A stretch of 64,000 nt of DNA. It comes from Wickerhamiella versatilis (lineage: Eukaryota). The notes under the pieces are model-generated. The model ran no database searches, had not been told where the DNA came from, and saw nothing but the letters and a program-made list of their open reading frames with translations. How positions within the stretch are numbered: position 1 is the first letter of the stretch; each line of letters begins with the position of its first letter. A program made the position numbers and the translations under genes. The DNA lies in NCBI GenBank assembly GCA_030867685.1, contig JAQOWU010000007.1, positions 744,001 through 808,000 of the forward strand, given 5' to 3'. Below are positions 3,769-63,598 of the stretch, in pieces.

Positions 3769-3858
3769 ATTTTATAGTATATTGATGTTAGCTTTGCATT
3801 GAGTTTGGCGAGATCTAGATAGAACCTATCTGTTGTAGTTGACTAATCATACTTGTGG

Positions 3859-5865
3859 ATGGACAAGAACCTCATCCGCACTGTTAACCAGCTTCAAGAT
3901 GCATTTGCGGCCTTAGGAGCCACTGCAAACCCGATTGACTTACCTCAGATTGCTGTCGTTGGTTCACAATCTAGCGGTAAGTCCTCCGTCCTTGAGAACA
4001 TCGTCGGCCGTGACTTCCTTCCTAGGGGTTCGGGAATCGTTACCAGAAGGCCTCTGGTGCTGCAGCTCACAAATGTTACACCAGGAAGGAAAGAACCAGA
4101 GGGTGGACTGAAACCTGGAGAGAGTGCTGATGAGTGGGGTGAGTTCTTACATTGCCCAGGTAAGAAATTCTATGACTTTTCAGCTATTAGAGATGAGATA
4201 GTGGCTGAGACTGACAGAAAGACGGGAAAGAATGTGGGTATTAGCCCTGATGCTATAAGCCTGCGGATATTCAGCCCCAATGTGCTCACACTCACGTTGG
4301 TAGATTTACCCGGTATGACGAAGGTGCCAGTTGGGGATCAGCCACCTGACATTGAAAGGCAAATCCGTGAAATGATCCTTCAATACATTTCAAAGCCAAA
4401 AACTATCATACTTTCTGTCAACGCAGCGAACACGGATCTAGCAAACTCAGATGGACTAAAACTGGCTCGTGAGGTAGACCCAAGGCTTCAGCGCACTATT
4501 GGTGTACTAACAAAGATTGACCTCATGGACCAAGGCACGGATGTTGTTGACATTTTGGCTCAAAGAGTAGTGAAGGTATGGCTAGGGTGGGTCCCGGTCA
4601 TTAACCGTGGTCAGAATGATATCAATAACAACAAGTCTATTCAGTCCGCGTTAGACTTCGAGAGAAATTATTTCGAAAATCACCCGGCTTATCGTGCTAA
4701 TGCGGCATACTGTGGCACCTCATTTCTCGCAAGAAAGCTGAATACGACGCTCATGAAACATATTGAGCGCTCCCTCCCGGAAACAAAGCTTAAAATCAGT
4801 GCTGCCCTTTCGCGTTACCGCGATGAGCTTGAAGAACTCGGAACAGATTTGGGGAACCCAGCTAATGCTCTCCTCGCTATCATTACAGACCTCACCAAGA
4901 ACTTCACGTCTCTTCTTGAGGGAACTAACGATGATTTATCCACGGTAGAACTTGCTGGTGGCGCCCGAGTTTCATTTGTCCTTCATGAGCTCTATTCTAA
5001 CGGCGTCAAGGCTATAGATCCATTTGAGCAGGTCAAGGATGTTGATATCAGAACAATTTTGTATAACTCATCTGGATCAACACCGTCGCTTTTCGTAGCT
5101 ACCAGTGGTTTTGAGGTCATTGTGAAGCAGCAAATCAGTAGATTCCAGGAACCCAGCCTGAGAGCAATCACTCTTGTATACGAGGAGCTTGTATCCATTC
5201 TTTCAATTGTTCTGAATGGGGCAGAATTCAAGAGATATCCACAGTTGAGGGACCACCTTCATATGGAGGCAATTGAGTACCTTCAAAGGCTCGTCAACCC
5301 CACTCGCAAACTAATCACCGATATGGTGGCGATGGAAGCTGCATATGTAAATACGGGTCACCCAGATTTTATTGATGGCCACCAGGCTATGGAAATAGTG
5401 TCTGAGAAATATAGACCTAAGGGGAACTCTTCAAAGACTGCTCCACCCCCAGCCACTACTGTAGAATCAGTGGATAAAGGATTCTTTGGTTCCTTTTTCT
5501 CTTCCAAGTCTTCCAAGCGTAAGATGGCTGCCATGGAAGCACCACCAGCCGTCCTTAAGGCCACGGGTCAGCTGAGCGAGCGTGAGTCAATGGAAACGGA
5601 TGTAATTAAACTTCTCATTCAATCTTACTTCAATATTGTGAAGCGTACTGCCACTGATATGGTTCCTAAGGCTATAATGTTGAATTTGGTTGAAAAATCA
5701 AAACGTGGACTGCAATCTGAGCTGTTGCAGAAGCTTTACGCATCAGGAGACTACGAAAATCTTATGAAGGAGTCCGATTTCTTCATTGAAAGGCGTAGAG
5801 AATGTCAAAAGATGGTTTCTACACTTGAGCGGGCTCAGGAAATAATTGCTGGTGTCCAAATGTAG
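3859..5865 (+). CDS. VPS1: Dynamin-like GTPase Vps1
   Basis: [16 protein letters not shown]..., [17 protein letters not shown] motifs and C-terminal GED. ATG at 3859. Confidence 0.95.
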
Positions 5866-6137
5866 GTTAGTGGCTATTTTTCATTATCGCCAAGCAAAAA
5901 TTCTCTTGGGGGTATACTCAAGTCCGTCTACAGTAAGTTCAAACTAGAATGGGCAGTGTTCACGATGATGTCCGGCCCTGCTAAGATCGTAATAGAAGTA
6001 AAACTGCATCTACTTGTTTCCATGGCGGGGAAACAGCAATTTCCATCACGTGATGAAAGGCGGCTTATATAGCAATAGATCATTGCCCATACCCATAAAT
6101 AACCGTCACTTCGCTTTGTTGCCCTCGAAAGTTTACA

Positions 6138-7607
6138 ATGGGACTGCGAAAATTGATACATGAGTTGTCCACAAATGATGTGACGCCTGCAGGTCCAGCA
6201 ATCTCTGAAAAGTCTCCCACTAAAAAGGAGCTGTACCAAAATAGAGAACAGTATGGGCCTAATTTTGGCGCCTTGTTCGTTCAGGAAAGATGGATTGACG
6301 ATTCGCTATTCACTGATAAAAGTGACGGAGGCTCTGAGCTTGCCGCACTTAAAGGTCAAGATGCTAGTGGAACTTCGCTTGACGACATGGCCAAAAAGTG
6401 GGAGAGTCACTGGGATAGCTTTATCTCAGATGACGACTGGAATAAACTGAAAGACTCTGGTGTAACTGCAATTAGGTTGCCGATTGGAGTTTGGAATCTT
6501 AGCGATCATAAATTTGTGAAAGGCCTTCCCTTTGAAAAGTATTCAAAAGTTTATGAAAATTCCTGGAAGGCTGTGCGTAAAATTATCGACAAGGCTCATG
6601 ATAACAGCATAGGCGTGCTTGTGGACTTCCACGGACTTCCTGGTGGTGCCAATGGTGACGAGCACTCTGGTTCGGATTCTGGAAAAGCTGAGCTATGGCA
6701 TTCTTCTAAGTATCGTGACCAGGCTATCGCTGCCTATGAGTTTGTCGCTAGTGAGCTCAAGGACGTTGAGAACATTGTGGGCATTCAGCTAGTCAACGAG
6801 GCACCATGGGGTGTTTCAAAGCTCAAATCTTTTTATCTGGAGGCTATTCATAAGATAAGAAAGATAGACTCCACCGTCCCCTTGATCATATCGGATGGTT
6901 GGGATCTAGGTACCTGGAGAGATACAGTGAAGGAACTCGATAACAGCGTGAAACCTTCCACAATTGGTGTCGTGATCGACACACATGTCTATCGTATGTT
7001 CAGTGACGACGATAAGCACAAGTCAGCCGATGAACATATAGAGAAAGCAACGCAATGCGTATCTCCTGATGATGATACCGATGTCATGGTGGGTGAGTGG
7101 TCTTGTGTTCTCAGCGAGGATTCATGGAATAACTGTTCTCAATCCCGAGAACAGGCAGAAATTGATTATGGCAAGCGACAACTCGCCTGCTACGAGTCTT
7201 GTGCACGCGCAGGGTCCTATTTCTGGACTTTCAAATTCGGACAAGGTGCCGGCGGTGCCTGGGATTTCCGTGTCATGAGTGAGAAGGGTGCCCTAAATTC
7301 GCCTACGGGGAAGCCTTCTGGTAGTCGAGATGAGAAGCTTTCCGCAGCATTCGAAAGTCACAAAAACTATTGGGACTCCCAAGACAATAGTCAGGACTGG
7401 GAACACTGGCGGTTCGAGGATGGGTTTACTCGAGGCTGGGAAGATGCTGATGAGTTTGCCAAATTCAATGAATCCCGTATTGGACGCCTTGCTGCTGTGA
7501 AAGCAGCTAGGACTTCCCAGCATGCTGATGAACGTGGCTCTTCCGACAAACTATGGGTGTTCAGCCACGCCTATGTCCAAGGGGTCAAAGCTTTCTATGA
7601 CCAATGA
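6138..7607 (+). CDS. Glycoside hydrolase family 5 (YBR056W-like cytosolic beta-glucosidase/glucanase)
   Basis: GPNFGALFVQERWI, DFHGLPGGANGDEHSG, acid/base NEA, DTHVYRMF and nucleophile VGEWS; no signal peptide. Confidence 0.85.
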   Translation: MGLRKLIHELSTNDVTPAGPAISEKSPTKKELYQNREQYGPNFGALFVQERWIDDSLFTDKSDGGSELAALKGQDASGTSLDDMAKKWESHWDSFISDDDWNKLKDSGVTAIRLPIGVWNLSDHKFVKGLPFEKYSKVYENSWKAVRKIIDKAHDNSIGVLVDFHGLPGGANGDEHSGSDSGKAELWHSSKYRDQAIAAYEFVASELKDVENIVGIQLVNEAPWGVSKLKSFYLEAIHKIRKIDSTVPLIISDGWDLGTWRDTVKELDNSVKPSTIGVVIDTHVYRMFSDDDKHKSADEHIEKATQCVSPDDDTDVMVGEWSCVLSEDSWNNCSQSREQAEIDYGKRQLACYESCARAGSYFWTFKFGQGAGGAWDFRVMSEKGALNSPTGKPSGSRDEKLSAAFESHKNYWDSQDNSQDWEHWRFEDGFTRGWEDADEFAKFNESRIGRLAAVKAARTSQHADERGSSDKLWVFSHAYVQGVKAFYDQ

Positions 7608-7717
7608 ATTGATTAGCGTTAGATACAGATATTCCTTTCCATCAAAATAGACGTCTTTTAAACTAAATATATCAATACAGTGTGGTGTCTCTTTATGTTA
7701 CATATTGAATTAAATTC

Positions 7718-9610
7718 TTATAGCAGATAAGACAGAAGTCCTAGAATTATAGTGGATAGAGCTCCAGCTTTTGCGCCAGGGACGGCAGCATCTGACGACC
7801 TCAAAGTCTTCTCTGCTGCAACTGCAGTTGAATGGGCTTGGTTTGAAACGGTGTTATTCTTACCATCCCGGCGAGAAGGTCCATTCGAGGTGTCCGAAAC
7901 TATCGATCCATCCCAGCAGTAATGATCGAAACACTTTTGGCACTGACTCGTCGGCTCTTCACCACGACGCTGCTGTTCTCTCAGAATAATAGCACACCCG
8001 AGGCAGGCGCGCCATTCAGAATCAATTGTACCGTTGTTCTGGGTCGTGGTTTCGTAGCCATTCTCAATCATTCCACCCAATTCATCCTCATCATAGCTCA
8101 ACTTAAATGTACCCTGATTGCTTGAATAGGAGTGATAGGAATTAGCAATATAAACAACAAGAGGAGGGTAATATCGTTCGCTTTCAGGAAGCGAATCAGA
8201 GAACAATGAGGTCAGATTTGTACGGTTGCAGCCGAAGAAGGTCGGCTGCTCAGTGAGCCCACCATACACGAAAGTGTTGTTGTCTGGAACGTAGGGGAAA
8301 ATGGTATTATTGCTCTGGTCACCAAATTGACGCTCATAGGAAGATATGAGCGAAGCACCGTTAGGCCACGAATCACCGGTATCTGCAGAGTTGTCGAAAG
8401 CGAGGATAACATCCACACCACGTTCAGGCTGAATGAGAGGCTGGAACGGAATGTTCTGGCCGTCCTCACCACCATCTACTAGAGTTAGAAGTTCCTCATC
8501 ATTCTGAGTGACATAAGACACGTCCTGGAAAGGATTATTGCTGTAAAGAGCAACGTCATCACCATCATTACCGAGATCCTGCAGAATGTCCTCAATGATG
8601 TCATAGGCCCATCCACCGATGCCAGTGCTATTAAGCTGCAAAATGAATTGGTTGAAAAGAGTAGCTGATGTTCCAACCATATATCCAGCGTTATCATAGC
8701 CAACAACACACTGGTTCGAATCAGGATCACCATCTGACACCTGGGAACCAATGTACTTGAGATCAGTGAAACTGTGAACACTAGGATCCCAAGAGCCAAG
8801 TTCGAATGGATTAAACTCAAAATTTGTGGAGTTGGTATCGATGATAGTCTGACCAATCTGTCGCTGGTCAGTTACATGAATCGGGAAAGGCATTTGGTGC
8901 GACTTGAATACATCATAGTCCCGAATGGCGACGTAGCTGAGGTTCTGACCACCTTCGCTAGCATTGAACAACTGGTAACCAAGTCCACGGCCCCAAAGGT
9001 CGGTCAAAGAGATGTTGAAACCAGCATCTTGCTTATCCTGAGCGTCGGTGACGATAGTATCCCAATAGTCAGCATCCGAGAATAGATTAAATCCACCAGG
9101 GTCGATAAGACTGTGGTCCAAATTCCAAAGATTCTTATCATGCTGCAGAGCCTCTACACTGGAGAAGTTATTCATCACTACTGACCCCACGAGCCAGTTA
9201 CCGCCACTAAGTCCAGCCAAGTAAGTGGTGGCCTGCAACAGTCCACCAAGGTGTCCAGTCTGATTCGACCCGGCGGTACGGTTGTCGAGGGCAGCTAGCT
9301 GCCCGGCACCAGCAAGCATTGCCCGGTAGCCACCACCACTGTAAGCCAGTCCAATTTTAATTGTTTGGTTGCTCAAGAATGATGAGGCATCGAAATCACT
9401 CATATTAGAGTGATTCAGCCAGTCAATAAGTAAAGGACGGGTGACCTGGTCACGGCTCTTTATCCATCTAGATTCTGAGCGTGAAAGCGAATCCGCATTA
9501 CGGGTGAAGCTTGCATTGTATGGGCAAGTCACATTCGTAGGAACGTAAGGACTCGGATCATCCGCTAGAACTAGTGAAAGCAAGGCCAAAGCAACTGTGT
9601 TGCCAAACAT
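7718..9610 (-). CDS. PLB1: Secreted/GPI-anchored lysophospholipase (phospholipase B)
   Basis: Signal peptide MFGNTVALALLSLVLA, SGGGYRAML, GLSGG and LVDGGED motifs, hydrophobic GPI-type C-terminus. ATG at 9610. Exact paralog uncertain. Confidence 0.9.
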   Translation of the reverse strand: MFGNTVALALLSLVLADDPSPYVPTNVTCPYNASFTRNADSLSRSESRWIKSRDQVTRPLLIDWLNHSNMSDFDASSFLSNQTIKIGLAYSGGGYRAMLAGAGQLAALDNRTAGSNQTGHLGGLLQATTYLAGLSGGNWLVGSVVMNNFSSVEALQHDKNLWNLDHSLIDPGGFNLFSDADYWDTIVTDAQDKQDAGFNISLTDLWGRGLGYQLFNASEGGQNLSYVAIRDYDVFKSHQMPFPIHVTDQRQIGQTIIDTNSTNFEFNPFELGSWDPSVHSFTDLKYIGSQVSDGDPDSNQCVVGYDNAGYMVGTSATLFNQFILQLNSTGIGGWAYDIIEDILQDLGNDGDDVALYSNNPFQDVSYVTQNDEELLTLVDGGEDGQNIPFQPLIQPERGVDVILAFDNSADTGDSWPNGASLISSYERQFGDQSNNTIFPYVPDNNTFVYGGLTEQPTFFGCNRTNLTSLFSDSLPESERYYPPLVVYIANSYHSYSSNQGTFKLSYDEDELGGMIENGYETTTQNNGTIDSEWRACLGCAIILREQQRRGEEPTSQCQKCFDHYCWDGSIVSDTSNGPSRRDGKNNTVSNQAHSTAVAAEKTLRSSDAAVPGAKAGALSTIILGLLSYLL

Positions 9611-10076
9611 TACCACCGCTGGTGAGTCTTTCCAATGGGATGCTTGACTAAATTTATATGTATGCCAGGTTAGTACACAAATATGACGTAAGTAGCCAAA
9701 CCCGAGACGAAAATCACGGGGAGTACAGTTCAAGTTTCCGATTTCCTGATGAGGTCTTCCTCCACATCACACCAATGCACCGGAATCTTTCTCCCCAGTT
9801 AGACCGAAATCTAACTTTTCAGCTAACTTTAGTTCGGAATTGGCTTCTCGATGTTAAATCCGGGTATAATTGGATCAGGGCAAGGGCTTCAAAAATTGGC
9901 AGCATTGCTCCGAGTGAATAAGTGACATAGACCTGTGTCAGTTGATACAACTTTATTTGCTATGCGCTGTAATACAGAACAATATCAATAACTACGATTA
10001 CTTAACACCATCAAACTAGCGTAGTGTAATTCTAAACTGTGGTATGTGTAGGTATTCAATTAGCGAATTGCGAATT

Positions 10077-11576
10077 TTACTTATGCACGGACCCCACCCG
10101 GGCCGGGGATGGCACTGTCGATCCGGCACTGGTTTGACGTCTTCTCCGTGGAGAGGGATTCGATGCTAGGCGGAATTGACGGGCGAAATGCACTTGTTGC
10201 GACTGTGGTGGGTCGTAATCAGTGACAATGCGTCTTTGACGTGGGACCCACACTTGCTCATTTTCCAGCTCGTCATCGCTATTAGTATCGGTGCAGGATG
10301 GAAGGGTTTGATAGCGGGATGCTGGTCGGGGTGCCGTGCTACGAGGGGATGGCGATTTCCGGGGCTGCCCGGGTGTCGGTACAGGCAGTGCCGATGTAGC
10401 GTTTGTCACAGTCCCTAAAATAGAGCGTTCAGGGGTTCGTGGTGGGGACGAGGACACCACATGGCTCTGGCGTCGGTGCGTTGGCGACAGCTGTCGCATT
10501 TCCCGCATGTACTCTCGCTCGGTGACCAGCGGCGAGTAGCCGGCAAGACTATCATCAGGAATTGTCCCAAGGCGCATGCTGCGGCGCCATTCCCGGAACG
10601 TATATTGGTGCTGGTATAGCCAATGCTGCTGGGGACCCACAACCATTCCTGGGCGGAGGAAACGCATGTATGCAATAACCTCCTGGGCTGTAAAGCCGTA
10701 GGTATAGATTAAATGGGCACCGATGAGACACCCCGTGCGGCCAAGACCGGCCCTACAATGGACAGCGACCTTGCCACCTTCACGCACAACACCCTCCACC
10801 GCTCCAAGGAAGCCCTGGACAAAGGACATAGTGGGGCATGTTCCGTCGTCAAAAATTAAATCTGCATGCTTTACACCATGACGCTCGAATTCTTCTGCTG
10901 GATAAAGATGGCTATTGAGGCGTATTACTAGCTTCACATTGTGGCGATGGAAGTATTGCAATACCTGGTCGAAGGCCCAGGGCAGCTCCTTGCCGTCAAC
11001 CTGTGGATCATACTGGGGACTCGCAAAAGCAACATAGTAGGGTGATATTGCACTAAGATCGCCATTTTCAACCAATTCATAATTTTCATACTCGTCTAAA
11101 TCGAACTGACGAATGTCTAGGAGACCGGCTTCCTTGGCCCGCCACAGGCCATAAACAACATCCTGGATGGTCAAAATAAAATCAGCCACACTATATCCAG
11201 CATCCCTGAACGGCATGAAAGGCGGCTCTGCTTGGGCAAGTGGCGCCAGCGCCGAATGAGGTGGCCACGACTGTACAAGGACCATATAGCACGCAAGTAA
11301 ACAAGCGGCATTAGCCCGTGAGCGAGCGTCCGTGCGGCTGTAAAAAACTACTGCCTTATTACCATTGGCCTGCAGAACTTCATGGAACATTACTGCAAAT
11401 CTATAACAGTGTGCAATATTCAACGGGCCAAAGTCATGGTGGAACGGGTTGTATTCGAGCTGCTCGTCAACTGTAAAAAATACCCGGTGGCGAGTATCCT
11501 CGGGCGTATAATCATAGGCTGCGAGATATACCTTGTCCCGCAGATATTCAATAACGGGAATACTGCCTCCCGGCAT
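10077..11576 (-). CDS. CDC14: Cdc14 dual-specificity phosphatase
   Basis: YNPFHHDFGPLNI, FRDAGYS, FDDGTCP, HCRAGLGRTG, RPGMVVGPQQ. Confidence 0.95.
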   Translation of the reverse strand: MPGGSIPVIEYLRDKVYLAAYDYTPEDTRHRVFFTVDEQLEYNPFHHDFGPLNIAHCYRFAVMFHEVLQANGNKAVVFYSRTDARSRANAACLLACYMVLVQSWPPHSALAPLAQAEPPFMPFRDAGYSVADFILTIQDVVYGLWRAKEAGLLDIRQFDLDEYENYELVENGDLSAISPYYVAFASPQYDPQVDGKELPWAFDQVLQYFHRHNVKLVIRLNSHLYPAEEFERHGVKHADLIFDDGTCPTMSFVQGFLGAVEGVVREGGKVAVHCRAGLGRTGCLIGAHLIYTYGFTAQEVIAYMRFLRPGMVVGPQQHWLYQHQYTFREWRRSMRLGTIPDDSLAGYSPLVTEREYMREMRQLSPTHRRQSHVVSSSPPRTPERSILGTVTNATSALPVPTPGQPRKSPSPRSTAPRPASRYQTLPSCTDTNSDDELENEQVWVPRQRRIVTDYDPPQSQQVHFARQFRLASNPSPRRRRQTSAGSTVPSPARVGSVHK

Positions 11577-12330
11577 TAACAGTGTTGACTATTTGTTTGT
11601 TGACGGTATCCGGGACTTGGGTATATTCTCTCAGGTTAGGGTTTACTAAGCTGAGTTTGAATCTGGAAATGTAAACAGAGATTGATAACATCTGCAAAAA
11701 GTGTCTGAAATTTGGCCCATAGTTCTATAATCCTATAAACGAATTGCATCTACTCACTATATGTGTAAAAATCAGGAATACATCTGTGGCAAGTACCAAA
11801 AATATAAGATTTGGTACGAAAGACTTTACCATACTGATGCCTAACTGTGGGATTTTCATAAAATTATAATGTACAGGGGAAAAAATCAAATTCAAGTCTC
11901 TTTGATTCTCTATGGTTAGTTATTTTCTGGTTTGCCTCACATGTTTACAACGGCTAAATTGGCTACGCATTCTCCACCATTACATGGCTTACACATAACA
12001 CATCTACATATATTGCCACGCATGGCAAACATGTTTGATAACAAAAATTCGAAACATGACCACAAAAATTAGCAATTAATCCTCACATACCTGGATTAAC
12101 ACTTTAAATTGAATTCTTAATACTATGTCATGTCATATCCTGCTACTTGCCTCCCTTTAACTAGAGCACTCATCAGTTCAGGCCTGCTAGATACATAACT
12201 GTTGTAGAGTGAGAAGATGTGCACGTTGCGCAGAGTGGTATACATTGGAATTGACCCACCTTGAGACCTGTCCACTACTGGAGCATTGCTTGACTAAACC
12301 TAACCTAACTTTCCTACTTACTCTAATTCA

Positions 12331-14226
12331 ATGTCTTCGCTTGAATTGGGCGCACTTGCTGCGTTGGGAACAGCGTACCTTGATGCGCGTCATGATATTG
12401 CCACTGATATACTCACTATCAGTAGATTTGCCTACTCAGTGATGGCCTGGCAAGTTGCTTTACGCAGAGGTCAAGCTAACTCTTACTATATCTTCGAGAA
12501 GTGGGCAAAAACTCAGCCAGATGCCCCTTTTTTGATATATCCAGAGCCTACTGGGGCTAATAATGGCGACTCCGAGGGTCAATTCATCTTGAAAACCTAC
12601 TCCTATGGCCAGGTATATGATTATGTGCTACGATATGCCAGCTTCCTTCGCGAGGAGATGAGAGTACACAAGGGCGATGTGGTCGCTATAGACTTCATGA
12701 ATAGACCAGAGTATATCATCGTATGGCTGGCGCTGTGGTCACTTGGTGCATGCCCCTCCCTTATAAACTACAATCTACGTGGCGGTGGGCTGATCCATTG
12801 TGCAAAAGTGTCGGGGTCAAAAGTTCTGCTCTGTGACGAGGATAGTGCAGCTGCAGGAGAGGAAGTGGCGAGTGAACTAGGAGAGAGTGGCATAAACTTT
12901 GTACTGGCGGATCGGCAGCACTTTGAGCGCGTATATACCCATCACTCCCCGTATCGGATTCGTGATAGTGACCGAGGCATTGCGAAGGCTGATGGAACCG
13001 CAGCGTATATATTCACGAGTGGAACTACGGGTTTACCGAAGGCGGCGATAATTTCGTGGGAGAAGTCGTGGTTTGGAGGGTTCACCTATGGCAGTGTCAA
13101 TGGATTCCAGAAATCCGATGTGATGTATTCTGCCATGCCCCTTTATCATTCCACGGCTTCGATACTTGGGTTTTCTCCTATTCTACAGGTGGGTGCTGCA
13201 TATGCGATAGGGCACAAGTTTTCCGCATCCACATTTTGGAAACAGGTATGTCTTTGCAACGCCACTCTTATCCAATACGTGGGCGAAACATGCCGCTATC
13301 TGCTTTCTAGTCGTCCTGGATCTTATGATAAAGCACACAAGGTGCGAATGGCCCTTGGAAATGGCATGCGACCTGACGTTTGGAAGAGATTTAAGGAGCG
13401 GTTTAATGTTCCTGTCATAGCAGAATTTTACGGTGCCACGGAGCTACCATTCATCCTCACAAACAAACAGATAGGTTCCAACGGTATTGGTGCTTGCGGC
13501 TCTTATGGCACACTGGTAACCACTTACTTGCAGCTCACGAAGTGGAGTATTGCTGCTATTGACCCAGATACCCTAGATTTATGGCGTGACCCCGTGACTG
13601 GATTATCACGGAGGACAGAGCCTGATGAACCCGGAGAATTTCTCTTCAAAGTCAATGCAAGCAGAACTCACAATGACTTTCAGGGATATGTGGGTAACTC
13701 CAAGGCAACCTCCAGCAAACTGGTATTCAATGTTTTCAGAAAGGGAGATGCCTGGGCTAGATCCGGAGATTTGTTAAAGATGGACAAAAATCATTGCGTC
13801 TACTTTGTTGATCGCCTCGGAGACACGTTTCGCTGGAAGTCAGAGAATGTGTCCACAACAGAGGTGGAAGAGGTATTTCACAGCATCCCAAGCGTCGAAC
13901 AGTGCGTTGTTGTGGGTGTACAGGTGCCTCGCCATGAGGGTAGGGCAGGTTTCGCGATAGTAAAGCCAGTGGAAAATGCACAGCCAGACTTGAAAGAGGT
14001 AGCACAGGCAGTGACTCGTAGTCTTCCTCGTTATGCAGTCCCACTCTTCTTGAAATTCTCTGAAGAAATCGCAACCACTGGCAATAACAAGGTTCAGAAG
14101 ACTAAGTTCAGAACACAACAAATTCCTTCACCAACAGAAACTATCTACTGGCTTGTTGATAACAATTATGTCCCTCTCACAACACAGGCATGGGCTTCTA
14201 TTGAAACAGGCAAACAAAAGTTATGA
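12331..14226 (+). CDS. FAT1: Very-long-chain acyl-CoA synthetase / fatty acid transporter (FATP family)
   Basis: YIFTSGTTGLPK, EFYGATE and DRLGDTFRWKSENVST motifs; ends in PTS1-like QKL. Confidence 0.9.
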   Translation: MSSLELGALAALGTAYLDARHDIATDILTISRFAYSVMAWQVALRRGQANSYYIFEKWAKTQPDAPFLIYPEPTGANNGDSEGQFILKTYSYGQVYDYVLRYASFLREEMRVHKGDVVAIDFMNRPEYIIVWLALWSLGACPSLINYNLRGGGLIHCAKVSGSKVLLCDEDSAAAGEEVASELGESGINFVLADRQHFERVYTHHSPYRIRDSDRGIAKADGTAAYIFTSGTTGLPKAAIISWEKSWFGGFTYGSVNGFQKSDVMYSAMPLYHSTASILGFSPILQVGAAYAIGHKFSASTFWKQVCLCNATLIQYVGETCRYLLSSRPGSYDKAHKVRMALGNGMRPDVWKRFKERFNVPVIAEFYGATELPFILTNKQIGSNGIGACGSYGTLVTTYLQLTKWSIAAIDPDTLDLWRDPVTGLSRRTEPDEPGEFLFKVNASRTHNDFQGYVGNSKATSSKLVFNVFRKGDAWARSGDLLKMDKNHCVYFVDRLGDTFRWKSENVSTTEVEEVFHSIPSVEQCVVVGVQVPRHEGRAGFAIVKPVENAQPDLKEVAQAVTRSLPRYAVPLFLKFSEEIATTGNNKVQKTKFRTQQIPSPTETIYWLVDNNYVPLTTQAWASIETGKQKL

Positions 14227-14422
14227 ATTTATATAAGAAATTTGAGGACATGATCAGTAAACTCGAATCTGAGTTTATAAGAATAAATGCATAAAATTTT
14301 ACATCAGTTGAGACCGCTCGGTTTCACCTGTACCCACTAGGCATAAGATAATATCATGTGAATTGCTTAATGGATTTGGATAAATGAATATATGGATGGA
14401 TTAGGGTTTATTTAGGTATGAT

Positions 14423-15694
14423 ATGCGTCAATTGCCATTGGAGATCTGGCGATACCATATTCTAAGTCGGGTTCAGCTCGAAGACTTATTGAACTTCGCT
14501 GATGCTAGCTCATCCTGTTTGAACACTGCTGAGCCATTGGTGTCGAGTGCCTACAAATCACGATTTGTCGATGACGCGTGTTTAGTGCCAGGAAATAATT
14601 GGTTTGAAAAGGCCAAAATAAGGCTAAGGTGCAGACTGGTGGCTTGGGGTGGTACTGATCACCCACATTTACCGCCAATTCTAGGTGGGGGACTGCCACG
14701 AGTCACTGCGCTTCCCGTAATGCTTCAGGGAGAATACAAGGAGCTTTGCACAGGGGACCCAGCTCGATTTACCGCAATATCAACCGGAAATGAGATTAAT
14801 GACTTTGGCGGTGAGAATGTGAGGTTATTAAAGCAAGAAACGACAAGCGGGCGCGTACTCTGCCTTCCCCGGCAAAGCAGTTACACTCTATGGGCAAGTT
14901 CTGAAAATGGTGAACTGCTATGTTGGCAGAAATATAGAGATACTCCTGTTATAGCTCACTGGTCCAAAAAAAGAGTTAAAAGCGTCGCATATGTGTTGAA
15001 TTGCCTCTACGTATTGAATAATGAGGGCCTATTGACTTTGCATACCAAGTCCTCATCGGAAATAATAGAAGTAAATACCTCTGTGAAAGGCATTTTTAGA
15101 CAGGGTACCTCAAGACTTATTATTATTCTGCAAAATGGCCAGCTCATGTACTTGAATGGGGGTTCGGCATCTTTGAACGCATGGCCGTTCACTACAGAGC
15201 TTCTCCCTGAAGGACAAGATTGGAAGAATATGAGTATCAGCCCATCTGGAGAACATGCCTTATTCTGTAATGAAAATGGTGATGTGTTCCATGGAGAATT
15301 TGACACAGGTAATTGGCAGATGACCGCATGTCGTAAAGTCACTCTATGTGATGCTGCCATAGACACAGCAGTTATAGACTTTGAAAGCCTATTTACTGGA
15401 AGTTCTGGCTATGTATGTTATATATTATCACAGAAGGGCTCTATTTATGTTTTTGGCGATCTAACCATTCCTGATCTGCCTAAGTTTGGGTTGGGCGATC
15501 GTGATCGCATAGAAAAAACCTCAGGCTGCGAATTAAAAAGTGGCCGTGTCATCATAAGTACCCCTCAATTGGTTCTTCAAGGCCCTGTTCTCAAATTAAG
15601 GGCATCGCGGGGCCATATAACCGTCTTGGTGCCACCAGAGACCATACAGAAACCAGACTCGGCTGAGCCAAGGGTGAAACGACGAAAAATTTAG
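14423..15694 (+). CDS. F-box protein with degenerate RCC1-like repeats (Saf1-like)
   Basis: N-terminal F-box-like LPLEIWRYHILSRV.LEDLLNF; AWGG, VFGD...FGLG and beta-propeller-like segments. Confidence 0.55.
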   Translation: MRQLPLEIWRYHILSRVQLEDLLNFADASSSCLNTAEPLVSSAYKSRFVDDACLVPGNNWFEKAKIRLRCRLVAWGGTDHPHLPPILGGGLPRVTALPVMLQGEYKELCTGDPARFTAISTGNEINDFGGENVRLLKQETTSGRVLCLPRQSSYTLWASSENGELLCWQKYRDTPVIAHWSKKRVKSVAYVLNCLYVLNNEGLLTLHTKSSSEIIEVNTSVKGIFRQGTSRLIIILQNGQLMYLNGGSASLNAWPFTTELLPEGQDWKNMSISPSGEHALFCNENGDVFHGEFDTGNWQMTACRKVTLCDAAIDTAVIDFESLFTGSSGYVCYILSQKGSIYVFGDLTIPDLPKFGLGDRDRIEKTSGCELKSGRVIISTPQLVLQGPVLKLRASRGHITVLVPPETIQKPDSAEPRVKRRKI

Positions 15695-15722
15695 TTTTGG
15701 CTCTCCTATGTACCTAGCAAAC

Positions 15723-16829
15723 CTAAGCCAAGAGCTTTGTGACTTCTTGGGCTATGGCGTCTCCGACTTGTTCAGTGGTGCTGTCTCCCCCGATGTCACC
15801 AGTTGAGATTCCTCGCTCAGTTACATTGCTTACTGCTTTCTCCAAGGCGTCAGCTTCCTCAGGAAGATTGAGTGATAGACGCAGCATCATTGCAGCTGAG
15901 AGAATCATAGCGATTGGATTGACCTTGTTGCGGGCAAGGTCAGGAGCAGAGCCGTGGCAAGGCTCATAAAGGCCGAATGCCCGGTTCTTATCAGGTAAAC
16001 TGTTAAGACTGGCACTTGGCAGTAGGCCAAGAGATCCAGGGATGACAGAGGCCTCATCACTTATGATATCACCGAACATATTAGTGGTGATAACAACGCC
16101 ATTAAGAGACCGAGGGTCCTTAATAATTTGCATAGCAGCGCTATCAATTAGCTGATGCTGCAGGCTGACTTCTGGGAACTCCTCCTTAAAGATACGGCTT
16201 ACTGTTTCCCGCCACAGTCTTGAGGTGGCTAGAACGTTAGCTTTGTCCAAACTCCACACCTTGTGAGGAGGGTTTGACTGACGGGCTAGGAATCCTGCCA
16301 TGCGTGCAATCCTCTCAATCTCAGGGACTGAGTATTTTTCAGTGTCCCAGGCGACCCCTTGATCGTCAGTCTCTTGGCGCTCGCCAAAATATATACCTCC
16401 AGTGAGTTCACGAACAATGACAAAGTCCGTTCCTCTTGCTTTGTCTTCCCTTAGGGGTGAGAGCTTTGCCAAACTATCGCAAACGAAGTTGCAGGGGCGC
16501 AAGTTTGCGTACAAGCCCAACTCCTTACGAATTTTCAAGAGTCCTTGCTCGGGGCGAACTTTGCCAGTGCCCCATTTTGGTCCACCTACAGCTCCCAAAA
16601 GCACAGCATCTGCTGCCTTGGCAGCACTGAGAGAATCGTCTGGCAGGGGGTTTCCAGTGGCATCGATAGCTGCACCGCCTATCTTATGTTCTTGGAAGTT
16701 GAAGGCAAATTTGCTGCGAACGCTTTCCACGGCTTTTAGTACTTTGATCGCTTCTTCGACGATTTCACTACCGACGTGGTCACCAGGAAGCACTACCACC
16801 TGGTAAGTGTGAGGTGTTGTAGTAGTCAT
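15723..16829 (-). CDS. LEU2: 3-isopropylmalate dehydrogenase
   Basis: [50 protein letters not shown]. Confidence 0.97.
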
Positions 16830-17019
16830 GATGACAACAAAATATCTTGTAAGCTTTGAAAAATACGTTCTGGCAATATACTATTAAACAAGTTTGCACA
16901 TAATTTACCTCCTGTTAGGCTTAGCTGGGTCTAATCATAGAGTATTAGGGAGTTGCGACGATCTTATTATCAAAAAATAGCTATGTCTCTCATCATCGTA
17001 ACGAGTACTGCCCTCTACT

Positions 17020-17028
17020 ATGAGTCAT
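17020..17028. promoter_or_regulatory. Perfect Gcn4/AP-1 site ATGAGTCAT about 190 bp upstream of LEU2
   Basis: Exact match to the Gcn4 consensus upstream of an amino-acid biosynthetic gene. Confidence 0.6.
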
Positions 17029-17184
17029 GTTTGATACATCGCATAAGGTGATAACCAAGATAGGCATGCAGTGACTTGTCGACAGACTTATCTTTTAGTA
17101 TTATACTTCTAAATATCGACGGACTGGATTGAAAATACAAATATAGTGAGCCAATGATCTCCCTGATTAGAGGAGGAGACCTGG

Positions 17185-17745: not shown

Positions 17746-17905
17746 CTACCGCGTGCCACCACCAAATTACTAATAAACACTTGATCCTAATGCACAATTA
17801 CACTACCTGATGCTGGTTGGACAATATGCTAGGCATTGTCAAAGGCCATAGTTGATGATTTGAGACAGCATTGCAAAAAAAATAAATTAGAAGAAAAAAA
17901 TCTAT

Positions 17906-18688: not shown

Positions 18689-18778
18689 TGCTCTACGCTG
18701 TTTGATTAGTAATAAGAGGCTTTCACGAAATAAATTTATATACTGTATACACTAACAAAGAAATACAAAAAACGAAAC

Positions 18779-20479: not shown

Positions 20480-20723
20480 AGAGGCAGGGCTATCAGTTGA
20501 AATCCCGCTTCTGAAAGACTAAGGTATGAATTGAGGTAAGCGAACCCTTAGTCAGGTTGCGGTCTTGGTTGTTGACTGCTTGCGTGGTAGGATAATACAT
20601 TGGCGGTCCGATTAAGCGTGGATTGTTCTAGTTTTTATTTCAAAGACTTAAACTATTTCGAACTTGGTGCTTTCGGAAGCTTTCATAGCTGCCAAATTTT
20701 CAAGTTAGTCAGGAAGTTTCACT

Positions 20724-21095: not shown

Positions 21096-21195
21096 TCGAA
21101 TCTAATAATTATTTAATAGGGAAGATAGTATACAGTGAGGATAACTATGCACCAACTCAGTTTCATATACATATCTGATACGGAGTAGATATCTG

Positions 21196-22836: not shown

Positions 22837-22986
22837 TTGCAGTAAACACTTCATATATCCATATTTATTGTATCATCTCGATGTTTTCGTCTTTTATTAT
22901 CCCCAATATAATTGTATAATCCTAGAATTATCAGTAGATAATATTTAAAAAAAAAGATACATGGTTAAAAGACATCTTCGCGATTT

Positions 22987-24858: not shown

Positions 24859-25032
24859 ATCTCCACTTACATAACAAGACACGATAGTTGGTCTATATAC
24901 ATACTTTAGTTGTTGTCTTCGAACGAGTCATTTGAATCATTTTTAAGGATATGGAAACAAAAAAAAAGGTCTATAAATCTATAATTCTCAACGTCAAGTC
25001 ATATAACGAGAAAACGAATGTGTCAAGTAAGG

Positions 25033-26382: not shown

Positions 26383-26426
26383 GAAAGTGGCAAGACCAGT
26401 TTGTCAATGATGAGATAATTTAGCAG

Positions 26427-28410: not shown

Positions 28411-28509
28411 CCGAGATATACGGTTATGACTAATAAACGCGACCTGGTCGATCCCATTAAGGGTTAGGAGTCTGTGCTTCTCTCTCCTTCACAGTTGGCG
28501 GAGTCGCAG

Positions 28510-35148: not shown

Positions 35149-35405
35149 GACCGTTCTTGAAATTATCTATAATATATTTGTCAGCTGATGAAAACCCCGC
35201 TTTTACCTATGGTATGTTATGTTATTTTGTCTTGCCTTGTCTTGCATTGTTTTGCTTCATAGCAAAAACATAGAATCTTGTATAATATTAGCAGATACGG
35301 TCTAAACTTAGGTGGTTCATAGATCCATAATTAACACGAAGCCACTTATGGAAAGAACGTGAAATAAAGATGTTACCATGGTGAACCTGAATGAATAAAT
35401 AAATA

Positions 35406-36551: not shown

Positions 36552-36833
36552 GACAAGACTAGAATAAGTTTACGTAATGAAAGTGTTTCTCACAAAACAG
36601 ACCAGATCGACATCACAGACAATATATGTCACGCCAATCCCAGTATCCGCTATAATAAACGATCTAAATTTTTTTGGTGCTGTTATAAGTATTAAATGTT
36701 GGCAGAAATAGCCTAGTTGTCGCGTAACACGACTACACCTGAATTATCCAAGTCTGACATGAAAGCTCGGCAAACTGCCGATGTTTAATCTACATTTAAT
36801 TAAAAAAAGGAATAAAGCACGCATGGAAGCGGC

Positions 36834-37094: not shown

Positions 37095-37728
37095 ATTTGG
37101 CGATTTTAAAATGAATAAGCCTAGAGAGGGCTCGCAAAATTTATACTGCTCAAATTGCAGGATGGTGGTAAGGGTTGTGTACGTCAAATTTTTATGCTTG
37201 CTGCTCACCGTTTACAATCCTCTGGTCTATTAAAAAATGAATTGATGAGAGCAAAAAAGATCGCTTAGGGTTTTCACAACTTTTGAAGATCCTGCACGTG
37301 TTCCTGCTCATCCACCATCTAGACGCGGTCCTCTTCCGCTCCTAACCCCATCCCTTCGAGCCCAGTTTACTAAAAAACGCTTTACATTCAGGTACGAGAA
37401 GTCTCTGAAAATCCATAATATTCCTAGGTAAAAAGTTGACATGGCTAGGAATAGGCCTTTTTATTGTGCTGATATATATGTTTTATAGGCTATAATCCTA
37501 GTAGACGCCAGACCAGATGAAATCCTGAACCGTCGCATCATAAGAAATAGCAACGATAGGAATTGAATTATTTTCCAAGCGTGGAAAAGCAAACATCGCC
37601 AGCCAGGTCGCCGGTGTTTACACACAGGTCCAAACTAATTGAGATGGCCGTTATGAGAAAAAACGCCGGTACAATGATTAAGGCTTGTTGTGCCTATCCA
37701 ATCTCCCTGACTAACTCAACACCGTATA

Positions 37729-40214: not shown

Positions 40215-40411
40215 TGGCCAACCCTGTGTCAAGTGAGTTAGGTAATACGGCGGTATCTGGAAAATAAGAGCACGACGTCTTTCGAAATGTTTGACAATTT
40301 AGAAATAGATAGCGGCATATTTTTCTACCAGTCGATAGTACTAAGTTATACCGCCAAACCACCTTTCTATACGGTCTTCGGTCAGCGGTGATTACCTTTA
40401 CTCAGCACCCA

Positions 40412-41764: not shown

Positions 41765-41791
41765 GAAATATGATCCTGGTTACGTAATCGA

Positions 41792-41953: not shown

Positions 41954-42202
41954 TTGCTTGTAATCCGACGGGGGGGTGCGAAGTACACGGCTAATTAAGA
42001 TTTCCGACATAAGTGCAATTGATCCAATGTGTCACTAAATACTTAAGGGCATTTGTTTGACTTCCGTTCCCGGATGGGTGAGGGTTTATCTACACCAAGA
42101 GCCACAATGGGAAAGGGTTAATATACCAGGTGACGGTACCGACTTAGGGTCTTTATATCTCCCATCACCCATCTGTTGAGTCAATTGGGCCGTTCGTCCG
42201 TA

Positions 42203-46082: not shown

Positions 46083-47377
46083 GAACTAACTAGTTGTATT
46101 TGAACATTATCACCTGACCCCAAAAATGCTGCCACTTGTGCACCTATGCCTTCCCAAATTCGTTCGAGAACGCCACCAGCTTCCATTACCCATATCTCAC
46201 TTTTTTCAGGTGATGAAACAGCTAGAGCCCTGCCTAATTCATGCCATGTAAGATTTCCAGTAGTTTCGAATATCGTTGGCGGGTCGTCTTTGCGTAAGTC
46301 AACTATTGCAACGCTTGCTGGCGTAGCTAATGCAACAAGATACCCATTTGGTGAGGCCCGTATTTGATTGACATCTTTGATGTCCAATTCAAGTTTATTT
46401 TGCTTTTCTATTAAAGACCAGAATTTCACCCTCTCATCATCTGCATATATAATGTATTCTCCATCCGGATGAACGTCGATGGCTCTGGCCTCGAGATTGA
46501 GCTCGAAAGTCTCGCCCTCAGTTGATATAGCATATACAGCACCGTGCCTTAATACCACCAAGTTATTACTAGGATGCCATCTAACATCTTGAATCCCATC
46601 CATTCGTAGCTTCAATATATGACCCCAAACTACCTGGGTTTTTGTCCAATATAGCCATTCATCACCAGCCCAATCCCCCTTCAATGCAACCGTGCGGCCA
46701 GTGGAAACCTTTTCACCATTCAACTGCACAGAACCATTACTGTTGATTAATAAAGAATTATCCTGATGAGACGCTACCCAGCGGCCTTTTAACATATTTG
46801 AAGATGCAACATTCCAGTTAAGGTGCTTAGCCGCTGCATTGAGTTTTTTTCTTTCTTTATGAAGCTGTGACTTTAAAGAACCCAGTTTTTCAGGTGAAAA
46901 ATCCGTGGGTACCGGATGAGGTGTAACATCCTCTGAGATTGTAGGTTCGCTAACCGAGTCAACTGGTCGACTTTCTACCTCTTGTGATTTCAACGTCAAT
47001 TGAGCCGATCCTCCGGATTGGAGCCGAGCTATTACGCGTAATGATGCGTCGTTCCGCTCTCGCTCCTCTGCCAACTGAATCTCGGTATCACGAAGTTGCT
47101 TTCTCAGCGTATAAGATTCTAATACAAGCCCAGTATATTCTGATTGTAGAGCTTTCATCAGGGCTGGAATTGAGGCCAACTCGGGGGTACGCGATGCCCC
47201 TGGCCCCAGCTGGGGCGTGACCGAAATCAAATCAGTAGACTCAAGAGGATCTCCATTTATTGGATCCTGGTGGTTTTCCTGCACATACGCCTCTATAATA
47301 GATCTCTCAAATATACATCCGCTACGTGGGCTAACGACAGGCTCACTGGGGACCTGTCCGCTGAGAGCACATAACAT
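46079..47377 (-). CDS. PRP19: Prp19 U-box/WD40 splicing factor
   Basis: MLCALSGQVP.EPVVSP.SG.IFER..IE.YV....DPI; SIP.L...LQ.EY..LVLE; DA..RVIARL. ATG at 47377. Confidence 0.88.
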   Translation of the reverse strand: MLCALSGQVPSEPVVSPRSGCIFERSIIEAYVQENHQDPINGDPLESTDLISVTPQLGPGASRTPELASIPALMKALQSEYTGLVLESYTLRKQLRDTEIQLAEERERNDASLRVIARLQSGGSAQLTLKSQEVESRPVDSVSEPTISEDVTPHPVPTDFSPEKLGSLKSQLHKERKKLNAAAKHLNWNVASSNMLKGRWVASHQDNSLLINSNGSVQLNGEKVSTGRTVALKGDWAGDEWLYWTKTQVVWGHILKLRMDGIQDVRWHPSNNLVVLRHGAVYAISTEGETFELNLEARAIDVHPDGEYIIYADDERVKFWSLIEKQNKLELDIKDVNQIRASPNGYLVALATPASVAIVDLRKDDPPTIFETTGNLTWHELGRALAVSSPEKSEIWVMEAGGVLERIWEGIGAQVAAFLGSGDNVQIQLVSS

Positions 47378-47935
47378 TACGTCACGACATCGTGACAGGC
47401 AGGAGTCCAGAAATGCTCCTCGGAACGATAGGCAGCCAGCTCCGGAGCTGGAAAGCAAGTATTCATTGGTATTGCGTACTTCTATAGTAATTTAGTCTAT
47501 ACAATATAAGTTGATGTCATAGCACGATCCAGTATTGTGAAATGTGTGTTGTTTACAAATCGCCATAATTTCATACCCCCTTGATGGAAAAAGATCGCCG
47601 GATTAATGATTCAACAAGTATGATCTGTATTTGATCAAAGTAAAGCAAAAAGCCATATTCACTCAGTATCATTATTTGTCTATGAACAAAATATAGGAAG
47701 ATAAAAATAGGAGTAAAAGTCTATAAATCCTAACCTCAATCATAACAGAAGGAGACTAGGGCTTATAAACTATGGTCGAAAGGTTAGCTGAAGTTTAAGA
47801 AGCAAGTGAAATCTGTAATAGTTGGGCCGAACCTAGAAATTTAGCTCCTATTGCTTTTTACTGTTTTTAAATTTCGTCATCTATTGTCTGATTAATAATA
47901 AACTCTAAACACCAGACAATCCGACTGGCGCTCGA

Positions 47936-50431: not shown

Positions 50432-50436
50432 ACGCG

Positions 50437-50681: not shown

Positions 50682-50715
50682 TCACGTGCACATGTTTGAT
50701 GGTGCCATCACGTGG
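50682..50715. promoter_or_regulatory. Two RTCACGTG (Cbf1-type E-box) sites in the OCA5-ECM29 divergent promoter
   Basis: gtcacgtg at about 50682 and atcacgtg at about 50707; a similar ATCACGTGAT lies at about 6045 upstream of the GH5 gene. Confidence 0.4.
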
Positions 50716-55797: not shown

Positions 55798-56027
55798 ATG
55801 TTCAAAATGGTTAGGCTATGAACCCGAGTAAGTAACCGGAAAAAAAAGAATATTTTAATTTCTGTCTAAATATAACATTTAGTACCACTGTAATTTCAAA
55901 AGAATCATAAGCAGTAAAACTTTCTTTGCAGGTGGCCGATCTTAGCTATCTTGCACGCTCTCGGCTACTTTCCCCATCTAGCTACCTTTGATTTGTCAGC
56001 GAACGAAGCTAGCCGTACCACTGGGCT

Positions 56028-63038: not shown

Positions 63039-63078
63039 AATGAATGGTATTTTAGTTATGGTTATGAAAGAAGTATGG

Positions 63079-63097
63079 TTATATATATATATATATA
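63079..63097. repeat. (TA)n microsatellite / likely poly(A) efficiency element between convergent TOR and COA3
   Basis: tatatatatatatatata run. Confidence 0.6.
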
Positions 63098-63232
63098 CTT
63101 GATCATCTTAAGAGCTCTCATATACATCTCATGAAATGTTCTTAAGATTACTCCAGCGTTAAAACCTATATACAGAGTATTCACGGCGAAGAGAGTGGAG
63201 ATATGCGTCAGATGTAGCCTCTAGTCAGCCAC

Positions 63233-63523
63233 TCAGCGTTGATCTAATCTTGCGCCGTGTTTCTTGCGGAGCTCTTCAAGCTCAGCCTCTGGGATATCAG
63301 GTATCCCAATGTCACCGAAGTCATCTGGCGTCAGAGCACGGTAAGTCCACCAGTAACAAAATCCGGCAAAAGTGGCGAACCCTGCACCAAGGAACATGTT
63401 ACGCACAAAGAACGGACGTCGTGCCCTAATTGCTGCTGCGGTCATCGTTCCATCTGAATTACGATACTTGCCACGAAGATTCACGGTCCTTACGCCTGAT
63501 GGCCGAACTGGTGAATTGGCCAT
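63233..63523 (-). CDS. COA3: Cytochrome c oxidase assembly factor 3
   Basis: MT.A..RARRPFFVRN, TM helix, DDF.DI.IP.I...ELE.L.K. Likely start is ATG 63523. Confidence 0.85.
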   Translation of the reverse strand: MANSPVRPSGVRTVNLRGKYRNSDGTMTAAAIRARRPFFVRNMFLGAGFATFAGFCYWWTYRALTPDDFGDIGIPDIPEAELEELRKKHGARLDQR

Positions 63524-63598
63524 CTGAAAATTCTTCTGACTAATCGCAGACGACGACCGCGACGTTACGTTCATCAACCCGTTGAATCCCCGGGTCGA

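Follow-up and report, generated by a model that had tools for sequence, protein, structure and literature searches.

Core promoters of budding yeasts are thought to hold little start-site information beyond a pyrimidine-purine step (PMC7849388). Initiator forms described in PMC8871863 include YYA+1NWYY and BBCA+1BW in humans, PyPyPu+1N(A/C)(A/C) in Schizosaccharomyces pombe, and ATCA+1ATTG at nmt1. Words of another kind are bound by Yap-type basic leucine zipper (bZIP) proteins: the Yap1p/Cap1p consensus is MTKASTMA, and sites exist in a 7-bp form with overlapping half-sites and an 8-bp form with adjacent half-sites, both of which are bound by Pap1 (PMC3111461). The published sites of this group comprise YRE-O, that is TTA(C/G)TAA or MTKASTMA, YRE-A, that is TTACGTAA, and T(T/G)ACAAA (PMC3111461; bioRxiv 10.1101/2020.05.31.125989). 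In microsporidia, a CCC-like motif is useful for calling start codons (PMC2803860). The present analysis concerns the heptamer T(T/G)A(C/G)T(A/C)A in one 64-kb stretch of the Wickerhamiella versatilis genome (contig JAQOWU010000007.1, positions 744,001 to 808,000; hereafter the window), and covers 36 start codons, each being the first ATG of its open reading frame (ORF).

The heptamer is enriched in front of these start codons and lies close to them, in both orientations; coding sequence avoids it, and mapped mRNA 5' ends coincide with it. Gene starts are therefore rich in the word while gene bodies are purged of it, and the word is probably a transcription start-site element. An earlier reading of the window (the original prediction) had proposed such an element and extremely short leaders with it; what it saw is real, and that main inference stands.

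Enrichment of the heptamer in front of start codons

In an unbiased scan of the -40..-1 zones of the 36 starts, made without reference to the motif family of the original prediction, TGACTAA/TTAGTCA ranked first among 8151 canonical heptamers, with 6 of its 8 window copies inside the zones where 0.15 are expected (Poisson P 1.6e-8, about 1e-4 after correction). The second rank was taken by TGACAAA/TTTGTCA, with 4 of 8 window copies in the zones, and this was before the published list of Yap sites was looked up. All 8 copies of TGACTAA/TTAGTCA are non-coding, compared with 1.85 expected from shuffled non-coding sequence (P 0.001).

The whole family T[GT]A[CG]T[AC]A is found at -45..-1 in 11 of the 36 zones, while the control zones hold it in 3 (-90..-46), 0 (-135..-91), 1 (3' flanks) and 0 (first 45 nt of coding sequence) of 36. 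Dinucleotide-preserving shuffles of the -45..-1 zones gave a mean of 1.18 and a maximum of 6, and none of 1000 reached 11. When the strict octamer TKACGTMA and TKACAAA or its reverse complement are added to the family, 18 of the 36 zones carry a site (shuffle mean 1.88, maximum 6, none of 1000 reaching 18), as do 4, 0, 1, 0 and 0 of 36 in control zones. The sites in or at the -45..-1 zones amount to 11 heptamers, 2 to 3 strict octamers and 5 copies of TKACAAA or its reverse complement. Octamers built of the same half-sites occur in 2 of the 36 zones, with 0.09 expected and 5 of 1000 shuffles reaching 2. Moreover, in the long divergent regions of 438-1177 nt (FAT1, SHR3, PEX13, MRPL22, MOH1) the site still stands beside the ATG of its own gene.

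Chance, helped by selection of the motif after the data had been seen, is a very improbable account of these counts. The family was indeed picked in that way, and the sample is a single window; on the other hand, the first rank in the unbiased scan with its corrected P of about 1e-4 and the absence of any shuffle reaching the observed count speak against it, and two independent signals, the avoidance in coding sequence and the coincidence with 5' ends described below, concur. Chance or cherry-picking is thus rejected on the scan and the shuffles, and the excess over chance for which the original prediction had offered a hand estimate is borne out by them.

The catalogue of that prediction proved accurate in nearly all respects. 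Its 11 heptamers, 4 octamers and 4 near matches all stand at the plus-strand coordinates given for them, and the gaps to the ATG are as it had them, namely 12, 34, 33, 21, 17, 12, 16, 14, 7, 19 and 13 nt for the heptamers and 8, 18 and 15 nt for three octamers. The octamer said to touch the PRP19 start codon does adjoin it, but with an overlap of one base, the A of the ATG. The gene names are for the most part upheld by Pfam, except that the NI9M label is not, its ORF having no Pfam match, and that the COA3 label is weak. As had also been claimed, sites stand near the start codons of unrelated housekeeping genes (dynamin, BAR, Rad52, Yae1, Dcc1, Shr3, Pex13, L22, Prp19), and both orientations occur, with sense TGACTAA at VPS1, FAT1 and SHR3 and sense TTAGTCA at PLB, YAE1, DCC1 and COA3.

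Sites of the window, by position from its first letter (a slash precedes the start base):

3840..3846, plus strand: TGACTAA, 12 nt 5' of the ATG of VPS1 (dynamin) at 3859; start probably at or near TGACT/A.
9645..9651, minus strand: sense TTAGTCA, 34 nt 5' of the PLB ATG, directly after a TATAAAT box; not a start site.
9623..9629, minus strand: sense aGACTC/A, one mismatch; PLB 5' end mapped to its last A (9623), leader 13 nt.
12291..12297, plus strand: TGACTAA, 33 nt 5' of the ATG of a FAT1-like AMP-binding gene; RNA depth low, with no 5' end among those listed.
16832..16838, minus strand: sense GTTGTC/A, which is TTTGTCA but for one base; Iso_dh 5' end mapped to the A at 16832, leader 3 nt.
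17767..17773, minus strand: sense TTAGT/AA, 21 nt 5' of the ATG of a Rad52-family gene; 5' end at 17768 (position 6), leader 23 nt.
18706..18712, minus strand: sense TTACT/AA, 17 nt 5' of the ATG of RVS161 (BAR); 5' ends at 18707 (position 6) and, minor, at 18710.
20705..20711, plus strand: TTAGTC/A, 12 nt 5' of the YAE1 ATG; 5' end at 20711 (position 7), leader 13 nt.
28427..28433, minus strand: sense TTAGTCA, 16 nt 5' of the DCC1 ATG, within a 99-nt divergent intergenic region.
37708..37714, plus strand: TGACTAA, 14 nt 5' of the SHR3 ATG.
40398..40404, plus strand: TTACTCA, 7 nt 5' of a 77-aa ORF (NI9M label unconfirmed, no Pfam match).
42177..42183, plus strand: TGAGTCA, 19 nt 5' of the MOH1 (Yippee) ATG.
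63537..63543, minus strand: sense TTAGTCA, 13 nt 5' of the ATG of a Coa3-like ORF at 63523.
36570..36577, unstranded: TTACGTAA, with 8-bp adjacent half-sites, 18 nt 5' of the PEX13 ATG.
41780..41787, unstranded: TTACGTAA, 15 nt 5' of the MRPL22 ATG.
47377..47384, minus strand: sense TGACGTAA, sharing one base (A) with the PRP19 ATG.
24867..24874, minus strand: sense TTATGTAA, a degenerate octamer 8 nt 5' of the ATG of a Zn-cluster gene; the weakest member.
26400..26406, unstranded: TTTGTCA/TGACAAA, centred in a 44-nt divergent region with the two ATGs 17 and 20 nt away; a candidate for a start element that both genes share and that fires in two directions.
35177..35183, minus strand: sense TGACAAA, 28 nt 5' of the ATG at 35148.
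55992..55998, plus strand: TTTGTCA, 29 nt 5' of the ATG at 56028.
1473..1479, plus strand: TTTGTAA, 33 nt 5' of the ATG at 1513.
20548..20554, minus strand: sense TGACTAA, 68 nt 5' of the ATG at 20479; the sole TGACTAA/TTAGTCA copy more than 45 nt from a start codon.

Messenger RNA 5' ends and leader lengths

Four public RNA runs labelled as the same species were aligned to positions 3000-22999 of the window. Identity of the reads to the window is about 97% (95-99% for most of them), with hundreds of fixed differences present in all four runs, so that the RNA comes from another strain of the species. Loose read ends identical to the 3' part of the SMARTer template-switch oligonucleotide, found in the two poly(A) single-end runs, were taken as mRNA 5' ends; this sequence serves as an RNA 5' end label in Bookend (PMC9245221). 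Among the loose ends listed, at least five genes have a mapped 5' end, and these ends form sharp single-base piles.

The Rad52-family gene begins at 17768 (42 reads in X13) and RVS161 at 18707 (60 and 42 reads), with a minor end at 18710 (29 reads); YAE1 begins at 20711 (34 and 25 reads). The Iso_dh gene (15723..16829, minus strand) begins at 16832 (74 and 81 labelled reads), which makes its mRNA nearly leaderless, and the PLB pile ends at 9618 with 5 further mismatching bases, placing the start at about 9623 (102 and 227 reads in X13 and X14). Read in sense, three of these starts fall within exact heptamers (TTAGT/AA, TTACT/AA and TTAGTC/A), at position 6 for 17768 and 18707 and at position 7 for 20711, and the other two within heptamers with one mismatch (gTTGTC/A and aGACTC/A), both at position 7. 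The register is thus position 6 or 7 according to the base at position 6, as judged from five starts only.

Among the 302 pyrimidine-A steps of the -60..-1 zones, only 14 coincide with position 6 or 7 in an exact heptamer, and 32 do so when up to one mismatch is allowed. The probability that at least three of five starts would fall in exact heptamers by chance is 9e-4, and that all five would fall within one mismatch is 1.3e-5. Pyrimidine at -1 and A at +1 are found in 6 of 6 mapped positions, the minor RVS161 start being counted. TATA boxes begin at -35 from the mapped starts of PLB (TATAAAT) and RVS161 (TATATAAA). In the remaining two runs, primed at random, the boundaries of fragments lie 13-23 nt inside the labelled starts (16813/16819 for 16832; 18684 for 18707); because the boundary of this type at VPS1 is at 3864, VPS1 transcription would start at about 3841-3851, over the heptamer at 3840-3846.

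The leaders are 23 nt (Rad52-family gene), 19 nt (RVS161), 13 nt (YAE1), 3 nt (Iso_dh) and 13 nt (PLB), so the extremely short 5' untranslated regions foreseen by the original prediction are found in five of five genes with a listed template-switch pile. Its proposal of a start-site element likewise agrees with the mapped 5' ends, whereas the downstream promoter element that it had considered as an alternative need is unnecessary, because the motif itself overlaps +1. No ATG lies between motif and start codon in 14 genes, but none lies in upstream windows of equal size either. As a separate matter, the start-codon contexts of the window show no A-rich -3 region.

The start codons themselves are credible in these genes, because Pfam alignments begin at residues 1-16 in most named genes, including all five with a mapped 5' end. 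Pfam agrees with the names for dynamin, PLA2_B, AMP-binding, Rad52, BAR, Yae1, Dcc1, Shr3 and Yippee, and further for Zn-cluster, Pex13, L22, Prp19, Cdc14 and myotubularin, and it finds a TBC domain in the ORF called OCA5; the NI9M ORF and the YBL029W-like ORF had no match in the Pfam search. The COA3 ORF has a weak Coa3_cc match (E 3.3e-4, under Pfam's cut-off) and is open in frame up to 63574.

Strand-invasion artefacts arise where upstream bases resemble the GGG end of the template-switch oligonucleotide. The bases 5' of the five junctions are unlike that end, and an artefact of this kind is unlikely. A motif acting at the RNA level in the leader was rejected as well, because only one or two bases of the heptamer are transcribed.

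It is scarcely credible that the words serve as TACTAAC-like branch points in short introns lying within or ahead of the start codon, even though they contain CTAA and a few are followed by AG, for example RVS161 TTACTAATCAAACAG. Four of the seven TGACTAA/TTAGTCA sites near start codons are antisense to the gene, the N-termini align with Pfam profiles from residues 1-16, and the mRNA 5' ends fall inside the motif. The four RNA runs list no splice joint in 3000-22999, the sole joint there being one that "goes back 81" within PLB; branch points are hence refuted for the six sites of the original prediction in that region, because no splice joint occurs in 20 kb and both orientations are present. 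A strict sense-strand bias, which that prediction had named as a sign of branch points, is not seen. The PLB joint, at 8027-8107, is carried by a few X10 and X11 reads and may stem from a tandem duplication present in the strain that gave the RNA, or be artefactual.

Avoidance in coding sequence

In 54.4 kb of coding sequence the family is seen 6 times, compared with 22.0 +/- 4.6 expected under codon-order shuffling, and none of 500 shuffles was as low. The ratio of seen to expected is 0.27 for the family, 0.97 +/- 0.22 for random sets of four heptamers and 0.93 +/- 0.21 for sets matched in TpA and G+C, and a fraction of only 0.0002-0.0003 of control sets is as low as the family. The TAA-bearing forms are missing from coding sequence in both orientations (0 seen with 4.4 expected, and 0 with 4.7). 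Both orientations occur at gene starts (three genes with sense TGACTAA, four with sense TTAGTCA) and both are avoided in coding sequence, which is a statement about occurrence and not about function.

A start-site element and its possible reader

The heptamer T(T/G)A(C/G)T(A/C)A would be a promoter element lying over the transcription start site, and TKACAAA and TKACGTMA would belong with it. Within its downstream half, RNA polymerase II would start at the first pyrimidine-A step: at position 6 of the heptamer if an A stands there and at position 7 if position 6 is C, giving leaders of about 3-35 nt. The element would be functional in either orientation, and about half of the genes of the window carry one at most 45 nt from their own ATG. 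The initiation complex would be positioned on the word, and some promoters have in addition a TATA box some 35 nt upstream, an arrangement matching the non-scanning "classic" mode reported for Yarrowia. In the fullest version, the two-fold symmetric site would be read at +1 by a dimeric Yap/Pap1-type bZIP, which would place the initiation complex there.

Some points suggest a dimeric reader of the bZIP type. The main sense forms are reverse complements of each other and are aligned by the motif, not by the +1 register; octamers with the same half-sites are enriched along with them, and the words match the Yap spectrum. The enriched words of the window fit the Yap/AP-1-type consensus as MTKASTMA (7 bp), TTACGTAA (8 bp) or T(T/G)ACAAA, and no bZIP gene lies in the window. 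That a start-site element is read by a Yap/Pap1-type bZIP dimer, taken as one whole statement, is a plausible prediction, which we put forward tentatively and which leaves doubt slightly the heavier. A bolder form of it is a clade-wide, constitutive Yap/Pap1-type bZIP dimer acting as a general start-site selector, whose symmetric site over +1 would fire both ways, serve divergent promoters down to 44 bp, yield leaders of 3-23 nt and be purged from coding sequence; this form we regard as unlikely, if worth weighing.

Several observations weigh against a bZIP-read start-site element, in whole or in part. A bZIP clamped on +1 would need to leave before promoter melting, and hybrid TGACTAA sites outnumber symmetric ones, which is not what a simple homodimer would lead one to expect. 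The +1 position, the YYA+1NWYY fit, the hybrid excess and the number of genes are points in favour of the general machinery. Half of the genes carry no exact site, and the AP-1-type TGASTCA, TKACAAA and the octamers show no significant depletion in coding sequence. The mapped starts are a small sample (at least five genes listed), with only three in exact heptamers, and the motif is known from the DNA of the window while the RNA strain is about 97% identical to it, the motif itself being unread in that strain. At least one gene, with its ATG at 6138, has its probable 5' boundary in a stretch lacking the heptamer. Lastly, the PLB site at 9645-51 is located as the original prediction had it but does not act as a start site, being 22-28 nt upstream of the mapped start and following TATAAAT; among the predicted sites with a mapped 5' end, the start lies inside the site in three of four.

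The general machinery (TFIID, TFIIB and RNA polymerase II) could also read the word as an extended initiator with a lineage-specific consensus, its bZIP likeness and near-palindrome being incidental. We consider this somewhat improbable, yet a serious candidate. The element overlaps +1, every mapped start is a pyrimidine at -1 followed by A at +1, and several sites fit YYA(+1)NWYY, such as CTAATCA at VPS1 and RVS161 and CTAAACC at FAT1, by the consensus given in PMC8871863. A general element would be expected at many genes, and the word is present at about half of unrelated ones; in addition, sense TTAGTC at six genes and antisense at three make a slight excess of one orientation. Overlap with the start, a property of initiators, is seen in five of five mapped starts, each falling on position 6 or 7 of a heptamer that is exact or has one mismatch. 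Yet the main sense forms, TGACTAA and TTAGTCA, are reverse complements aligned by the motif, and the start position moves between 6 and 7. Close to the ATG there is also an excess of octamers, whose half-sites are spaced one base wider (2 of 36 zones with 0.09 expected), and this is a poor fit to an initiator of fixed register. Furthermore, as reported in PMC7849388, 12 yeasts mapped by CAGE (cap analysis of gene expression) show only the pyrimidine-purine step at starts, with a -8A or an A-rich tract in scanning species.

Ordinary Yap1/Gcn4-type upstream activating sites, brought near the ATG by tiny promoters and overlapping starts merely as a by-product of their TA and CA steps, are an improbable explanation. 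The sequences are textbook Yap sites, the intergenic regions are very short, many of them 44-270 nt, and the PLB site lies upstream of its start like a normal promoter site. Against this, sites keep close to the ATG even in intergenic regions of 438-1177 nt, the family falls to 3 of 36 at -90..-46 and 0 of 36 at -135..-91, and 18 functionally unrelated genes of 36 are far too many for a stress or amino-acid regulon; starts at positions 6 and 7 are also far above chance for pyrimidine-A steps. The sites overlap mapped starts and the genes are unrelated, which is not the picture of an upstream-activating role on a coherent regulon.

Gene content and further observations in the window

The window has 46.6% G+C, and ORFs of at least 90 codons cover 82% of it. 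Intergenic lengths are tiny, with about 90 nt between tandem genes and 20, 44 and 99 nt between divergent ones. One convergent gap measures 28 nt (15695-15722) and another convergent pair overlaps by 4 nt (46079-46082), and gene 3' ends are in this respect as compact as 5' ends. Many reads of the poly(A) runs begin at 15705, 18 nt beyond the stop of the minus-strand gene on the Iso_dh side. The gaps between genes hold no Rfam match, and no tRNA gene was found in the window.

The nearest named relatives of the dynamin (VPS1) are from Starmerella bacillaris (69%), Sugiyamaella and Trichomonascus, which places this yeast on the Wickerhamiella/Starmerella branch of Dipodascales. A metagenome scan with VPS1 gave 80 loci, all at most 64% identical and hence from other fungi, and the same kind of scan with RVS161 found no relatives. 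As a one-gene outgroup control, 28 VPS1 candidates were taken, 14 of which were dropped as the inferred position was not an ATG or was too close to a contig end; the site was in the -100..-1 zone of 0 of the 14 usable starts.

Some promoter regions carry other words. Sense CGTA is the most enriched 4-mer at -45..-1 (12 of 36 genes, 3.4 expected, P 7.5e-5 uncorrected), an enrichment explained only in part by the TTACGTAA octamers. The word ACCGTATA has three copies in the window, at 37721 (plus strand), 28417 (minus) and 40368 (minus), all in promoter regions, and two of the three lie within the predicted leaders of SHR3 and DCC1, just 3' of the heptamer. Upstream of the gene at 14423, at about 14395-14415, GATTAGGGTTTATTTAGG stands in place of a heptamer and includes a TTAGGG word, which we take to be telomere-repeat or Tbf1-like.

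The divergent pair at 987-1006, an ORF of at least 328 aa and one of 64 aa (presumably TMA7-like), has its ATGs 20 nt apart and no exact heptamer; its CGTAATCA is similar to ACTAATCA of VPS1 and RVS161. The 1177-nt gap that separates PEX13 from SHR3 contains an unannotated 86-aa ORF at 36834-37094 (minus strand), which starts like a signal peptide, has a tail rich in Ser and Ala, and has no heptamer within 45 nt.

Implications

If the reading as a start-site element is true, the window would show a yeast core promoter of a new kind, in which a seven-base word of two-fold symmetry stands at +1 in half of the genes, and it would open a route to understanding how divergent genes can be spaced only 44-99 bp apart in a free-living yeast. 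How ribosomes cope with leaders of 3-23 nt would then become a question. Start codons and start sites in such genomes could be called by a simple rule, and very short, defined promoters would be at hand for engineering Starmerella and Wickerhamiella production strains. Should the reader of the word be a Yap-type bZIP, a regulon-specific factor would clearly have become a general initiation factor, and a bZIP start-site selector would mean a core-promoter system built on the fold of a stress factor.

Comparison with known systems

Neither this word as a core promoter nor maps of starts or leaders in Starmerella or Wickerhamiella were found in the literature searched, many subscription papers being outside that search. 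The CAGE study describes, in its account of starts, only a pyrimidine-purine preference and no leaders this short, and its 12 yeasts include none of the Wickerhamiella/Starmerella clade (PMC7849388). The classic non-scanning initiation of Yarrowia lipolytica and the fission yeasts, as described there, shares with the window the TATA box at -35 (PLB, RVS161) and sharp starts (PMC7849388), and the TATA spacing at these two genes agrees with the fixed distance of about 30 bp given for the non-scanning mode of Yarrowia (PMC7849388).

The described Yap response elements (Yap1, Cap1, Pap1) consist of the same words as the window, including the 7-bp, 8-bp and TKACAAA forms, and are likewise pseudo-palindromic and present in both orientations. 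Known Yap elements are upstream activating sites on stress regulons, whereas the sites of the window stand over +1 of about half of unrelated genes; unlike the known elements, they avoid coding sequence and prefer the hybrid form TGACTAA, and their binding by a bZIP is a prediction. Initiators, in the forms cited above, resemble the window word in overlapping the start, in the pyrimidine at -1 and the A at +1, and in that a TATA box some 30-35 nt upstream can accompany them but need not. Unlike an initiator, the window word has three to four more conserved bases 5' of the pyrimidine-A step, two-fold symmetry, both orientations and octamer variants.

Two further systems offer partial parallels. 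The HomolD box of fission yeast (CAGTCACA), bound by Rrn7 at ribosomal protein genes, is described as a sequence-specific replacement of the TATA box and shares the AGTCA core (PMC10253590; PMC5769750). It lies upstream of the start, for example at -64 to -57 in nc-tgp1, and mainly at ribosomal protein genes, while the window word lies over +1 at genes of all kinds. Microsporidia, as portrayed in PMC2803860, likewise combine a compact genome with a short signal just before the start codon, the CCC-like motif, and with strongly reduced leaders, their 5' untranslated regions being under 7 nt. The microsporidian signal is a C triplet with no palindrome in obligate parasites, whereas the word described here is a near-palindrome in a budding yeast that, to judge from its nearest named relatives, is free-living.

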